Shown: in pieces, positions 19,525 through 26,113 of the stretch | Layout of the letters: every line of letters starts with the position of its first letter | How positions within the stretch are numbered: the first letter of the stretch is position 1 | Sequence record: PZ452591.1 | Length of the DNA: 64,000 nucleotides | Source of the DNA: a phage | Reading direction: 5' to 3' (one strand) | The notes under the pieces: model-generated | Databases searched by the model: none | Seen by the model: the letters and a program-made list of their open reading frames with translations, nothing else | Told to the model about the DNA's origin: nothing | Translations under genes and position numbers: made by a program

Positions 19525-19839
19525 CTAAAAGAAACTTCTTTCACAATTTTTTCCACTGAACCACGCGCTCACTGCTTTCTTAGTCTCAGGAGCAGTGTTA
19601 TCCATAAACCATTCAAAAGCAGCCTTTTTATGATTCTGGAGGGCTTCTCGGGCTTTAATCTGCTCACGGTCTATTAACACTAACATATGAGCCTTTCTTG
19701 TCACCAGGGGCTTCTTATGATTTTTTGAATATTCCCAATCATTTGTCCATCGCATCGTTGTTGCGAATTGAAGTACAGCTTCTTTAATCTTAGTTTCGTA
19801 AATTTCACGAGCCTTTGAGTATAACACCATTACCTCCAT
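19525..19839 (-). CDS. hypothetical protein
   Basis: 104 aa ORF. Confidence 0.45.
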   Translation of the reverse strand: MEVMVLYSKAREIYETKIKEAVLQFATTMRWTNDWEYSKNHKKPLVTRKAHMLVLIDREQIKAREALQNHKKAAFEWFMDNTAPETKKAVSAWFSGKNCERSFF

Positions 19840-19928
19840 TTACCAGTTTAATTCTAGTCATCTTTTTAATGGCAGTCCATATAATCTATTTCTGAACTGC
19901 CTTTTTGTCATAGAAGTCCTCTTATGAA

Positions 19929-20915
19929 TTATTTCAGAAGAGTAACCTCAGCGATTTCTTCCCAACCGTTTTTGTCGGTCATAATAAAGTCAGCAAGATA
20001 AAGAGCAGTACGCAGTGAAACATTGCGTAAACGATTAACATTGACTTTCATCCATGATAATGCTTTATAAGTTTCTTCATCAGAAAGACCGCGCTTTTGC
20101 ATCATGTCGGTTGAAAGAATAACATCTTCAACCCTGACCATAATTTCTTCATTAGTGTGAACACCCAAATCTAAATAAACTGAGCGGGACACTAATGCTT
20201 GTAAATGTGGAGCAAGTTTAGTACCACGGTCTAATTCGCGGTCAATGTCAACGTTTGTGATAAAAACAATCGTTCCTTTAAATTCAAACTCACGCTCAAT
20301 GCCTTTTTCTTCTAAGTAAGAAGATGCAGTGCTCCAGCAGACTTTACGGGTCTCTCCAGTGTCCAGAGCAGCTTTCAGAAGATTAAGAATGTCCATATCA
20401 GAGAAAACATCCACATCATCAATCAAAAGGACAGAATTCTCTTCACGATTATTCCAAAGCTGTTCATAAAGACCGATACCAGAGATTTTACCATTAATGC
20501 TTTTATATTCAATGTATCCAATATCATTTGCTTTATTTAAAGCTTTATCCAAAGAATACGTTTTACCAATACCTGCTGCTCCCGAGATAATTAATGAACG
20601 AATGTTTCCGTTAATAATACCATTCGTCATCATTCCCATAACATTAAATCTTTTATTAATGCGGGTTTTCATATCTTCATATGATTCTTTAACTTCTTCA
20701 ACTTTTACACCATCATATGAAATGTCTGATTTGTAAACCCAAACACCGCGACGCTTACCGTCAATTTCAACAAAAACTTTACCATCTCCTTGTGCATCCA
20801 CCGGAGCATTATCTGGGAACCATTCACCTAAGAGCTCAAAAGTTCCAGAGATTTCTTTACCGAAGTAGATACCCTTATTGATAGTTACAGTTTTCATTTT
20901 ATTCTCCAAATCCAT
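19929..20915 (-). CDS. P-loop NTPase (AAA+-like) (nrdC.10 position); start probably MKTVTI at 20895-20897
   Basis: Walker A GAAGIGKT; Walker B-like VLLIDDVD; GGAG RBS before internal ATG. Confidence 0.6.
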   Translation of the reverse strand: MDLENKMKTVTINKGIYFGKEISGTFELLGEWFPDNAPVDAQGDGKVFVEIDGKRRGVWVYKSDISYDGVKVEEVKESYEDMKTRINKRFNVMGMMTNGIINGNIRSLIISGAAGIGKTYSLDKALNKANDIGYIEYKSINGKISGIGLYEQLWNNREENSVLLIDDVDVFSDMDILNLLKAALDTGETRKVCWSTASSYLEEKGIEREFEFKGTIVFITNVDIDRELDRGTKLAPHLQALVSRSVYLDLGVHTNEEIMVRVEDVILSTDMMQKRGLSDEETYKALSWMKVNVNRLRNVSLRTALYLADFIMTDKNGWEEIAEVTLLK

Positions 20916-21013: not shown

Positions 21014-22027
21014 TCATTTATAATAACTTCGATGGTTTTCAAGATAGACTTTCTCAAGGAAGTCATCCCAAAAACCCATGTCCACTTTTTGCTGCATACC
21101 GTTCTTAGAAGCTTCAGTAGATGCTGCTTCTACTTGATCGACCACATCTTCCAAAAACTCTTGAACGGTTTTAAATGGATGTTTACCCAACTTCACGTCG
21201 AGAATAAATGGAGCGTCTTGAAGTGGATAAACCAAGTCGCCAGTTTTGTAAATTTCCAATAGTTGAAGTCCACCACGACAGGCATGGCTCAGAGCTTTCC
21301 AGTCAATGCCTTCGTTGGCTTCGGCCTTACGAGCGCGTTCACCATATTCAGCATCTAATTTGTTCAGTGACTGCTTAATCTCAATAAGAGAAAGCGTTGT
21401 CTGATATTTACGACCCAACACAGTGTAGAACGTTTGTGGGCCTGTTTTCTCATGATTATGGAACACCCATTCACAGAATTCATTTTCTGGAAGACGATGC
21501 TTAATATCTTCAACTTTAGTGCGACGCTGCTTAATAGAACCATCTTCTTGGTAATCAACCCATTGCTCGGGGATTTGATTAACTACTTTCAATACATCAC
21601 GTAATGCAGCCAAACGAGAACCCTTGACACCGTATTTAGAAGCTTGCTTGCGAACATATCCTAAATATGATTTCATGTTAGTCGTATAAAAACGAGAACG
21701 GTTGTCTTGAATAAACTTCCACACGTCAGGCAAATCAGATTTAACCACTAGTTCAGGTGGAGTGTGAAGCATATCTAATGCTACAGTTTCACCATCTGCT
21801 GCTAATTTAAAGAAATACTTAAGACTATACAATTCGTGGTCAATATCATCTTTAGTGTTTTTAGATGATGTGTTGTTAGTGTTTTTACTCATGTGCTCTT
21901 TAACGTTTCCGATAAGAATATCGCGAGCAGGAGGAACAAAAATTTCTTTAAAATCTACATCAGATTCTGGGGTAGAAGTTCCATAAAGATGACTACCAAA
22001 ATAGCTTTTCATTACTGTTTTCATCAT
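21014..22027 (-). CDS. predicted nucleotidyltransferase-fold protein (nrdC.11 position)
   Basis: 337 aa; N-terminal GSHLYGTSTPESDVDF fits the Pol-beta-type NTase G[GS]x9-13Dx[DE] pattern. Confidence 0.5.
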   Translation of the reverse strand: MMKTVMKSYFGSHLYGTSTPESDVDFKEIFVPPARDILIGNVKEHMSKNTNNTSSKNTKDDIDHELYSLKYFFKLAADGETVALDMLHTPPELVVKSDLPDVWKFIQDNRSRFYTTNMKSYLGYVRKQASKYGVKGSRLAALRDVLKVVNQIPEQWVDYQEDGSIKQRRTKVEDIKHRLPENEFCEWVFHNHEKTGPQTFYTVLGRKYQTTLSLIEIKQSLNKLDAEYGERARKAEANEGIDWKALSHACRGGLQLLEIYKTGDLVYPLQDAPFILDVKLGKHPFKTVQEFLEDVVDQVEAASTEASKNGMQQKVDMGFWDDFLEKVYLENHRSYYK

Positions 22028-22485
22028 TCAGCCTTATATTCAATAACAGGACATACTTTAGCTTTACGAGCTTTTAAAAATTCAACGATAACCGATTTCT
22101 TGGGTTGAATAGGAGGTAAACCTTTATACGCCCTATCAATATTTTCTACGTGTAAAGCATAATCCTTTTTCCATTTATAATCTTTATATTTTTCACGCAA
22201 ATATGCAGGAATAACAAATGAACCGATAATAAGTAAAACAACCAAAAGCGCAAGTATAAATGCCGATGGAAGAAGAGTCCATAAACTACCGAAAATAAGC
22301 CAACGTTGTAGGCTTTCTGCACAAATAATTGTTAGCCCTACGAGTATAGCACATCCAAAAATAGAAACGAAAAATGTAGGAATGGCAATAGACCAAAAAT
22401 ATGCGCATAATGTCTTGGGTCGTTGCCATTCATCGTTAAACAATTTGAATAATTTATAGTGCCAAGAGTTTTCATTAATAATCAT
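22024..22485 (-). CDS. membrane protein (about 3 TM)
   Basis: 153 aa; hydrophobic stretches; ATGA overlap with upstream gene. Confidence 0.5.
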   Translation of the reverse strand: MIINENSWHYKLFKLFNDEWQRPKTLCAYFWSIAIPTFFVSIFGCAILVGLTIICAESLQRWLIFGSLWTLLPSAFILALLVVLLIIGSFVIPAYLREKYKDYKWKKDYALHVENIDRAYKGLPPIQPKKSVIVEFLKARKAKVCPVIEYKAE

Positions 22486-22487
22486 AA

Positions 22488-23009
22488 TTATCCTTTCATT
22501 GAAGGCGTAACGGTTGTTAAATACTTAATCATAGCTTCAGCTTCTGATTTTGACAATGAAATTTCTCCATTGTTTTGACGAATAGAAATAAAATCCGGAT
22601 GACGGTCACCACCAGCTTTTAAAACATACATATAAGTATCAACTTCGCCTTCAATATTTGAAATGATTGAAGCAGTTCCACATGAATGCGGTTTTTGATA
22701 AATCAATACAGCTTTTCTTCCACCGTTTGACTGTTCATAGGCTTTTAATACATCAAACAAATCAGTTCTTTTATCAATAGCTAAAATGTTATTTTCATCT
22801 TCAATGTTAAATCCTTCGGATACTTCATAAAGTGTCACCCATAAATCGCCAATATCAATAACAGCATTTACGTTTCCACGGCTTTCAAGAGCATGACAAA
22901 TTTTCTTGATTTCGTCATAACTCATTTTAATAATATCATCTCCTTGAATAAGAAAGATGTCATTTTTAAATTCAACACGAATTAAACCACTTCCACTTGA
23001 AATAAACAT
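22488..23009 (-). CDS. hypothetical protein, paralog A
   Basis: 173 aa; C-terminus ISIRQNNGEISLSKSEAEAMIKYLTTVTPSM resembles next gene. Confidence 0.5.
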   Translation of the reverse strand: MFISSGSGLIRVEFKNDIFLIQGDDIIKMSYDEIKKICHALESRGNVNAVIDIGDLWVTLYEVSEGFNIEDENNILAIDKRTDLFDVLKAYEQSNGGRKAVLIYQKPHSCGTASIISNIEGEVDTYMYVLKAGGDRHPDFISIRQNNGEISLSKSEAEAMIKYLTTVTPSMKG

Positions 23010-23015
23010 ATTTCC

Positions 23016-23573
23016 TCACTTTGAAATCATAGTTGGAATAACAGAATCAAGATAAGTCTTTAGCGCAATAGCTTCGTCTTTGGTAAATGTAATGATATGT
23101 GATCGAAAATCGTCAATTTGGCGAATAGTTAAGACATCTCCCTCTTCATAACATTTTGATACATTTAAAAGAGTTTCATCATTCTGATTGCAAGCGTTAG
23201 TAATAATAGCATTGCAATTTTTGAGCCATTTTAAACTATGTTTTCTTTCATTAGAATAATAAAAATATTTAATCTTAGCTATAAAACTATCCCAATGGAT
23301 AACTGATAAACACATTGACTCACTTTTAATATTAAATCCTGGGCATGAAGAATAAAAATGAATTTTGTGCTCATCATTGATGCTTACTATTTTATCAGTA
23401 TAAGGATATTCAATTTGGGTTAAATGAATGATTTCACTAGGCGTAAAATATAGCATATCGTCTTCTTGCGTCAAACGATACATGTTATTTACTTTTTCTA
23501 TAGTCAATTCACCAAAAAGCGGACTAACTTCTAATACTAATCGTTTCATATTGATTCTCTTCGACTCACTCAC
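23016..23573 (-). CDS. hypothetical protein, paralog B (GTG start in track)
   Basis: 185 aa; C-terminus LTIRQIDDFRSHIITFTKDEAIALKTYLDSVIPTM. Confidence 0.5.
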   Translation of the reverse strand: MSESKRINMKRLVLEVSPLFGELTIEKVNNMYRLTQEDDMLYFTPSEIIHLTQIEYPYTDKIVSINDEHKIHFYSSCPGFNIKSESMCLSVIHWDSFIAKIKYFYYSNERKHSLKWLKNCNAIITNACNQNDETLLNVSKCYEEGDVLTIRQIDDFRSHIITFTKDEAIALKTYLDSVIPTMISK

Positions 23574-23701
23574 AATTACATACTCCTTTGAATAATATCA
23601 ATAATGTTGTTCACCAGATTATAAGTAAACATTGGGTAATTATATTGAATCATCACATACACAACAAACAAAACTTTCATTCTCTTCTCCTTGGCAGTTG
23701 A

Positions 23702-23735
23702 CAAGATTACTATACCATAACCTTGCCAACTTGTA
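23702..23735 (-). promoter_or_regulatory. T4-type early promoter
   Basis: minus strand GTTTAC, 17-nt spacer, TGGTATAGT; a 34-codon hydrophobic mini-ORF lies between it and 23573. Confidence 0.5.
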
Positions 23736-23903
23736 AACCATTAAATGACGTTTTCAATAAAATTCTGAAGCTTTGTGTGAGCATCAACCATGATTTTCAT
23801 TTCTTCCTCTGCGAAAGCTGTACCTCTTTCCCGAGCAGAATACTCATAGTCAGAAACTGCATTAGCATATTCTTCAATTAGCTTCATTAAAAACATCTGC
23901 TTT

Positions 23904-24098
23904 TCAGTTTTCATTATTCCACCTAATCATTTCAAGATATTGAACTAACTTAGCTTTAGATTTATCCAAATCCTTTTTAGCTGCTTCTATACCGTCGTAT
24001 GAATATCCTTCACAATGCTCAACTGCTAATTGATATGAATCTATTTCAATATCACGTGCTAATTTAATGATTTTTTCAAACTGTTCGCGTGTTAGCAT
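23904..24098 (-). CDS. small hypothetical protein
   Basis: 64 aa; N-terminal MLTREQ..KI motif resembles tk.1/tk.2-like ORFs. Confidence 0.4.
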   Translation of the reverse strand: MLTREQFEKIIKLARDIEIDSYQLAVEHCEGYSYDGIEAAKKDLDKSKAKLVQYLEMIRWNNEN

Positions 24099-24565: not shown

Positions 24566-24583
24566 AGTCTCCCGAAGGAGACT
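24566..24583 (-). terminator. rho-independent terminator downstream of rI.-1-like gene
   Basis: AGUCUCC-UUCG-GGAGACU hairpin then UUUUUCAUUUU on the minus strand. Confidence 0.6.
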
Positions 24584-24587
24584 AATG

Positions 24588-24974
24588 TTATTCGAGGGAA
24601 AGAAGATATTTACTCTGGTAAAACATTCCAGTAATATCATCTATCGTGCTTTGGATGGCTGGAGGCATTTCTTTATAAATGCTGTTAGATTGGTCTAGTA
24701 TGCGATCAATCATTTTAATTGTGTCGGTAGGAAGTTTACTGGCATCTGGAATTGAAGGTGTGTATTTTCTACCAGAATACCCCAAATATTGCTCACCAAA
24801 TTTATCAATCAAATCTGGCAACTCGGAGAAAATAAAATCGTATGCTTTGTGTCTAGCATAATTTTTAGTTTCAAAATGTGCAGAATGAAAATAAGCTTGT
24901 GCAGCCATTAATAAACCTAAGTATTCATCTGCCTTTGAAGGTTTTCCACTTTGTGAAAAGTCGCTGAATTTCAT
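24588..24974 (-). CDS. hypothetical protein (rI.-1 position)
   Basis: 128 aa ORF immediately downstream of rI. Confidence 0.5.
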
Positions 24975-25264
24975 TCAGTCTCCAATTTAATGTTCATAAT
25001 TCTAGCGTATGATTGTGCCATCTCCGCGCCTCGTTCTATACATTCAAAATCAGAAGAGCACGGGTCATTTTTATAGGTCGTTCTCATAAAACTATAGAAT
25101 TGTTCAGACGATTCTACGCTTTTATTTTCAAAAAGCATATAAACGTGCCTAATACCAGATTCCATAAATTTATCAAAATGAGGATCGACATTCGCTTCAA
25201 TCGATGGAGATAAAACAAATGACAATCCTAGCATGGCAAATAGTGCCGTTGCTTTTAAGGCCAT
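24971..25264 (-). CDS. rI: lysis inhibition regulator rI (membrane-anchored periplasmic protein)
   Basis: 97 aa; N-terminal signal-anchor ALKATALFAMLGLSFVLS; size and position as T4 rI. Confidence 0.7.
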   Translation of the reverse strand: MALKATALFAMLGLSFVLSPSIEANVDPHFDKFMESGIRHVYMLFENKSVESSEQFYSFMRTTYKNDPCSSDFECIERGAEMAQSYARIMNIKLETE

Positions 25265-25531: not shown

Positions 25532-26113
25532 CTAACCGAGCTTTTTAGTTAATTCATTCCAATGTTTTCTACACAAGGAAACATAAATTTCATCACCAAT
25601 ACAGATTTGATTACCTTCTTTAACTGGTGTTCCATCTTCCATTAATCGAGCTGTCATAATCGCTTTTTTGCCGCAATGACAAACTGCCTTTAGTTCAATA
25701 AGTTTATCTGCAATCGCTAAAAGTTCTTTAGAACCTTCAAACAATTTTCCAGCGAAATCAGTCCTTAATCCATAAGCCATAACAGGAACATTATATGTAT
25801 CAACAATTCGGCTCAATTGATGCACCTGTTCAGTTTTTAAAAACTGGGCTTCATCTACAAATACGCAATGAATATCTTTTTGTGCTTCAGCCCATTTATA
25901 GAACTCGAAAATATCCATATCATCTGTAATAATATTTGCTTCCTGCCTAATTCCAATGCGAGAAACGACTTCACAGACAGAATCGCGAGTATCAATAGCA
26001 GGCTTAAGAACTAATACACTCATTCCACGTTCTTTATAATTGTGCGCAGCAGTCAAAAGAGAAGCAGATTTTCCAGCATTCATTGCTGCATAAGTAAAAA
26101 TTAAACTCGCCAT
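25532..26113 (-). CDS. tk: thymidine kinase
   Basis: 193 aa; P-loop NAGKSASL; Zn-binding CHCG...C..C; matches T4 Tk. Confidence 0.9.
   Translation of the reverse strand: MASLIFTYAAMNAGKSASLLTAAHNYKERGMSVLVLKPAIDTRDSVCEVVSRIGIRQEANIITDDMDIFEFYKWAEAQKDIHCVFVDEAQFLKTEQVHQLSRIVDTYNVPVMAYGLRTDFAGKLFEGSKELLAIADKLIELKAVCHCGKKAIMTARLMEDGTPVKEGNQICIGDEIYVSLCRKHWNELTKKLG

Follow-up and report, generated by a model that had tools for sequence, protein, structure and literature searches.

Most Tequatrovirus phages carry a membrane protein gene and two MobD.1-family genes in the mobD slot, with phage T4 apparently the derived exception

Phage T4 carries mobD, the gene for a free-standing HNH homing endonuclease, between nrdC.11 and mobD.1, and the review entry for MobD gives its target as unknown and its activity as not determined (PMC2988022). 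In phage RB32 (NC_008515), the record annotates an open reading frame (ORF) of 153 amino acids (aa), RB32ORF096c, with the remark that it 'replaces mobD' and a 173-aa ORF, RB32ORF097c, described as 'similar to mobD.1', next to mobD.1 itself. Public annotations of phages already record both the arrangement and the paralogy of these genes, and Pfam has families that cover both paralogs. Here we describe the equivalent locus in a 64,000-nucleotide stretch of DNA from sequence record PZ452591.1 (the whole stretch is called the window below), which belongs to a T4-like phage in the genus Tequatrovirus. Positions 21800-24000 of the window match 512 phage records and are 98.4% identical to AR1 and 96.9% identical to RB32. 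All of the genes at the locus lie on the minus strand. Adjoining nrdC.11 (21014-22027) are the genes for a putative inner-membrane protein of 153 aa (22024-22485), a 173-aa second member of the MobD.1 (T4_y05I) family (22488-23009), and a 185-aa ortholog of T4 MobD.1 (y05I; 23016-23573), with the same order and lengths as in RB32, AR1, and T6 (96-98% DNA identity).

An earlier note, made from the sequence alone, had placed a membrane protein and two tandem paralogs at the T4 mobD position, with no homing-endonuclease-like ORF after the nrdC.11-like gene. The ORF list reproduced the positions and sizes given there for the three genes, and alignment to T4 confirmed that they occupy the mobD slot. 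No HNH or GIY-YIG ORF was present between nrdC.11 and the 185-aa gene in the ORF list, and a Pfam scan of the three proteins gave no nuclease-domain match; T4 mobD and the window genes share a slot but are unrelated in sequence. Our reading, to which we assign a probability of about 0.72, is that the locus is an ordinary conserved early accessory stretch of Tequatrovirus, encoding what would be a PUR-like protein pair and a membrane hairpin, and that T4 is derived from this arrangement via mobD.

At least 80% of the 962-bp segment that is exchanged in T4-type phages (22029-22990) was present in 423 of the 603 matching records, and the 173-aa protein was encoded at >80% identity in 434 records, T6 included. 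The T4-type mobD segment, in comparison, was found in only 47 of 505 records. The three-gene block is the majority state in Tequatrovirus, and the view of the earlier note that it forms a special variable module did not hold up. The genes instead largely conform to what that note had named as the contrary case, old conserved paralogs of the mobD.x set, and it is the T4-type phages that are the exception.

In Mosigvirus (G2469), a single MobD.1 gene is followed by a gene in the same position for a 157-aa protein homologous to the membrane protein (50% identity) and then by nrdC.11. In distant T4-like metagenomic contigs, a gene for another homolog, of 129 aa, lies between rI (antiholin) and RlaP/nrdC.11. 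Contig L021 carries a copy of the 173-aa type only (58% identical), then the membrane protein, and then nrdC.11/RlaP. Because of these outgroup gene orders, the position of the membrane gene beside nrdC.11 appears to be ancestral and the T4 arrangement appears to be the derived state. The MobD.1 duplication is likely to be old, because the paralogs are only 27% identical, and each copy can exist alone. A recent foreign insertion was ruled out by a GC content equal to that of the flanks and by the same synteny in the outgroups.

These observations bear on an alternative in which a lineage-specific variable accessory module was inserted at the mobD site and its duplicates diverge through positive or diversifying selection, as might occur in an arms race over host range or defense. 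We regard this as quite improbable, given that the block represents the genus majority, that outgroup synteny makes the membrane gene ancestral, that the duplication is old, and that the GC content is the same as that of the flanks. Gene-wide ratios of nonsynonymous to synonymous substitution rates (dN/dS), computed across 8 to 11 Tequatrovirus genomes, also argue against it; the membrane protein gave 0.18, the 173-aa protein 0.12, and MobD.1 0.135, compared with 0.019 for nrdC.11. Purifying selection acts on each of the three genes, and diversifying selection left no sign at the level of whole genes, although the earlier note had taken their divergence to be typical of accessory genes under selection. 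The range of 0.12-0.18, together with conservation in hundreds of genomes, also ruled out chance ORFs. In favor of the module, the locus is plastic (the mobD replacement, the Bas43 deletion, P0011-like chimeras, a nonsense allele, the genes in the mobD.2 slot, and a lineage with the 173-aa type only), the membrane protein is 29-50% identical between lineages, compared with 77% for nrdC.11, and the genes are nonessential in T4. Several structural variants do exist at the locus, and in that sense it is variable, but a lineage-specific module is not supported.

Among these variants, Bas43 (TadeuszReichstein; L020, MZ501106 125420-129038) has a natural deletion of the N-terminal two thirds of the 173-aa gene and of mobD.1-mobD.5, which leaves a 96-aa hybrid ORF beside rI.-1; its membrane gene is annotated in a shortened form of 116 aa. 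In vB_EcoM_BMB16 (BMB16; L007 1560-2081), the 173-aa gene has an internal stop, and its annotation covers no more than a 56-aa fragment, reflecting either a pseudogene or a sequencing error. A 179-aa metagenome protein, P0011, found on 6 contigs, joins a MobD.1-type N-terminal part to a 173-type C-terminal part, and this chimera appears to have arisen through unequal recombination between the adjacent paralogs. In T4, the region from nrdC.11 to mobD.3 has been lost in viable genome-reduced mutants (PMC9825161), and the three genes are dispensable in some settings despite being under purifying selection.

Synonymous divergence (dS) among the Tequatrovirus genomes was uneven across positions 22024-23549. 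It was approximately 0.20-0.24 in the C-terminal domain of MobD.1, the N-terminal domain of the 173-aa protein, and the membrane segment and 0.06-0.09 in the N-terminal domain of MobD.1, the C-terminal domain of the 173-aa protein, and the tail of the membrane protein, a pattern consistent with a recombination mosaic. The mobD.2 slot just upstream of MobD.1 is a second replacement hot spot. In PYPS2T (L005 2252-2705), and likewise in teqsoen (L012), T6 (L013), and BMB16, it holds two different ORFs, of 88 and 61 aa, rather than the 34-codon mobD.2.

The boundaries of the T4 replacement could be placed precisely. The window aligns with T4 at 96% identity up to position 22028 and again at 95% from 22991, and between these blastn breakpoints, which agree with alignments of the junctions, 962 bp of the window compares with 808 bp in T4 holding mobD. 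The exchanged segment comprises the membrane-protein gene and the 173-aa gene minus its first 6 codons, and alignment to T4 detected no mobD sequence within it. T4 retains the ribosome-binding site, the ATG, and the first six codons (MFISSG) of the 173-aa gene. These retained codons open an unannotated 23-codon ORF, MFISSGTDMCYKCKAKLNETKNQ, on the minus strand of T4 (NC_000866 57205-57276; L003 7206-7277), and the stop codon of this leader ORF overlaps the mobD start codon in the form ATGA. The replacement junction and the leader ORF are identical in T4, RB7, and pSe_SNUABM_01. In T4-type phages, mobD would have displaced the membrane gene along with almost the entire second MobD.1 copy, and the overlap suggests that mobD may be translationally coupled to the remnant of the displaced 173-aa gene.

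The same junctions raise the possibility, which we hold only tentatively, that the 962-bp cassette is the 'empty-site' allele recognized by MobD, such that the enzyme cuts in or next to it and repair copies the mobD allele across. The precision of the replacement, with identical junctions in the three mobD-bearing phages, favors such a target, and the placement of MobD between nrdC.11 and mobD.1 with its target unknown leaves room for it (PMC2988022). MobD activity has never been shown (PMC2988022), however, the presence of mobD in only 47 of about 505 records argues against efficient drive, and the proposal accounts for the polymorphism but not for the role of the three proteins.

Returning to the three genes of the conserved stretch, the membrane protein (RB32ORF096c) matched phrog_944, the RB69ORF104c/RB32ORF096c group, with an expect value (E) of 2.4e-50. 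Hydropathy and charge placed hydrophobic stretches at about residues 26-57 and 63-96, ahead of a basic C-terminal tail, so that the 'multi-transmembrane' protein of the earlier note was borne out as one with two hydrophobic stretches. A structure model, itself weak, gave a short amphipathic N-terminal helix and two long hydrophobic helices, and the tail has a net charge of +7. The conserved motifs are NSWHY...PK(T/S)LCAYFW and K.K.KVCP.IEY, and residues S7, W8, H9, Y10, P23, K24, C27, Y29, F30, W31, K138, K141, K143, C145, P146, and E149 are invariant. The protein thereby combines the profile match, the two hydrophobic helices, and the N- and C-terminal motifs of phrog_944. It is most likely an inner-membrane hairpin with both termini in the cytoplasm. 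A tblastn search of the window with this protein found no paralog, and no similarity to known T4 membrane effectors (such as lysis-inhibition or holin/antiholin families) was found in Pfam, NCBIfam, or PADLOC. The membrane-protein gene's stop codon and the nrdC.11 start codon overlap in an ATGA, in keeping with the tight packing of the genes, and the membrane protein would be translated together with nrdC.11.

The two proteins encoded upstream of the membrane gene are related over their full length. BLASTP aligned the 173-aa and 185-aa proteins at 27% identity (E 5e-8), in line with the description of them in the earlier note as tandem paralogs with clearly related C termini. Both contain PF24449 (T4_y05I_N; E 2e-33 and 115.4 bits for the 173-aa protein, E 6e-39 and 133.2 bits for the 185-aa protein) and PF24448 (T4_y05I_C; E 6e-22 and 78.2 bits, E 7e-21 and 74.8 bits, respectively), in every case above the Pfam gathering cutoffs of 24.9 bits for PF24449 and 27 bits for PF24448. 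Both also matched phrog_1502 (E 6e-66 for the 173-aa protein and E 4e-80 for the 185-aa protein). Identity was 32% between the C-terminal halves, reaching 40% in the final 35 residues, and 22% between the N-terminal halves, whose alignment score was reached by none of 500 shuffles (z 6.0). The N-terminal regions, said in the earlier note to differ, are indeed the more diverged, but the shared PF24449 domain and the shuffle test rule out that they are unrelated.

Comparison with the T4 mobD.x ORFs gave a different answer for each copy. The 185-aa protein is syntenic with T4 MobD.1 and 87% identical to it and is its ortholog. T4 MobD.1, which carries the Pfam label 'putative transcription factor', has the same two domains as both window proteins but is only 27% identical to the 173-aa copy, which has no T4 counterpart, its place there being taken by mobD. 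The single MobD.1 of Mosigvirus is 44% identical to the 185-aa protein and 29% identical to the 173-aa protein. The 173-aa protein is a full-length paralog, rather than an ortholog, of T4 MobD.1. No further paralogs were found within the window, and the 165-aa protein whose gene precedes that of the membrane protein in the distant T4-like contigs was rejected as a MobD.1 relative (hhalign probability 0.04%). The family is very small and restricted to T4-like phages, with 22 clusters recovered in a profile search of 1.84 billion representatives; these clusters include proteins of 74-87 aa that consist of the C-terminal domain alone.

The annotated length of MobD.1 differs between records. RB32 and AR1 start the protein at an internal ATG, giving 177 aa (L001 4217-4750), whereas the GTG at window position 23573, 8 codons upstream of that ATG, aligns with the T4 mobD.1 start codon. 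Because this GTG lies at the T4 start position and just downstream of GGAG, the 185-aa form given in the earlier note is more likely to be correct than the 177-aa form. The product names also call for caution. RefSeq describes these genes in AR1, SHFML-26, KIT03, PYPS2T, and T4 (mobD.1, mobD.4, and mobD.5) as 'molybdopterin-guanine dinucleotide biosynthesis protein MobD', a name that found no support in the family scans run on MobD.1 and that looks as if it had been carried over from the gene name.

The best fold matches of the MobD.1-family proteins were Pur-alpha, MRP1/2, Whirly, and PC4, entries whose names describe nucleic-acid binding. As a lead, we infer that these proteins consist of three Pur-alpha-like beta-beta-beta-beta-alpha repeats, of which repeats 1 and 2 would make one Whirly/PUR-type domain; repeated units of this kind forming a PUR-type domain are what characterizes the PUR/Whirly class, and the MobD.1-family proteins appear to have them. 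By analogy with Pur-alpha, the lone C-terminal repeat would most likely pair with a second C-terminal repeat to form dimers. An obligate heterodimer of the two copies is unlikely, since the MobD.1 type occurs alone in Mosigvirus and T4 and the 173-aa type alone in L021. These fold results fit the 'putative transcription factor' label of the family.

A second structure comparison (Foldseek against the PDB) gave no significant match (best E, 0.09), and Foldseek against a viral structure library returned mostly the MobD.1 family itself and unnamed phage proteins. No Pfam match to PUR, Whirly, or PC4 was obtained for the window pair at E values of up to 1, nor was there a sequence match in the PDB. 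Unlike the Pur-alpha/Whirly/MRP1-MRP2/PC4 proteins, with which they share 12% sequence identity, the phage proteins are acidic, both whole and as single domains, with isoelectric points of 4.2-6.1 (net charge serving as a rough proxy for a basic binding surface); across the members of the family the range was 4.2-5.9. Because the Foldseek result was not significant, the PUR, Whirly, and PC4 families gave no match, and the members are acidic, a putative role in binding a host protein is at least as plausible for this family as nucleic-acid binding. Their probable ligand early in infection would be a single-stranded nucleic acid or, in view of their acidic character, a host protein.

A more specific proposal is that the acidic MobD.1-family proteins are early host-takeover or counter-defense factors that bind a host protein, as nucleic-acid mimics or SsgA-like adaptors, with the two copies differing in target. 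The acidity that suggests this role has to be set against the best fold matches, all of which are named as nucleic-acid binders, and against the lack of a known partner. Nor did the proteins match known defense or antidefense models (the best PADLOC hit, at E 0.004, was marginal); NCBIfam and PADLOC scans yielded nothing informative. On balance, we consider this proposal rather unlikely.

Some of our results weigh against the reading of the locus as a conserved early accessory stretch encoding a PUR-like pair and a membrane hairpin, from which T4 is derived. The direction of the T4 replacement comes from parsimony and outgroup synteny and was not observed. For the membrane protein, there was no informative family or PDB sequence match, with only subthreshold noise in Pfam, NCBIfam, and PADLOC, and its structure model was poor (mean predicted local distance difference test score [pLDDT], 62.6) and unfit for a fold search. 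A search of the literature for mobD.1, y05I, and the ORF names used in RB32 turned up no study of the function of the three proteins.

Upstream of the 185-aa gene, the 34-codon hydrophobic mini-ORF reported in the earlier note (23576-23680) proved to be mobD.2, as annotated in RB32 and T4; its relatives are assigned to Phage_T4_Y05J in Pfam, and an equivalent ORF in contig L021 was assigned to the Y05J family. The early promoter that the note had placed farther upstream was recovered in a promoter scan as a promoter-like site, TTTACA-17-TGgTATAGT, on the minus strand (23737-23709). It is nearly identical to a T4 stretch whose start site would lie at about 57,954, which is the position of T4 early promoter Pe57954 (PMC6024815). 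Promoter-like matches inside genes were no more frequent than in shuffled sequence (19, against 13.9 +/- 3.5 expected), and inspection by eye revealed no convincing MotA-type middle promoter. Transcription would run from the early promoter through mobD.2, MobD.1, the second MobD.1-family copy, and the two-helix membrane protein into nrdC.11.

In transcription order, the neighborhood begins with tk (25532-26113) and rI.1, followed by the antiholin gene rI (24971-25264), rI.-1 (24588-24974), and the small ORFs mobD.5 to mobD.2a. Just downstream of rI.-1, a terminator-like hairpin on the minus strand (24566-24583; 4 GC pairs in a 7-bp stem and a T-run after it) would set this gene apart from the mobD.5-mobD.2a ORFs. 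On the other side of the three genes, nrdC.11 encodes an RlaP-type nucleotidyltransferase (PF10127, E 2.5e-11; DNA 96% identical to T4) and is followed by nrdC.10 (19929-20915). In the window, nrdC.9 comes directly after nrdC.10 (19525-19929), as in T4, whereas RB32 and AR1, the closest relatives at the locus, have a gene for a seg-like GIY-YIG endonuclease separating them. The window lacks this gene and so is mosaic in its homing endonucleases.

Taken as a whole, a picture in which homo- and heterodimers formed through the C-terminal repeats, where the two proteins are most alike, act early in infection on a single-stranded nucleic acid or a host protein, in which the 962-bp allele and its flanks are the MobD target, and in which the leader ORF marks the takeover of a translation start seems to us unlikely to be correct in all its parts. 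The exact junctions nevertheless point experimenters to where a MobD target may be sought. For a family restricted to T4-like phages, the three Pur-alpha-like repeats and the acidic character of its members provide a structural lead that can be tested. At this locus, the reference phage T4 is atypical, having apparently lost two conserved early genes to mobD.

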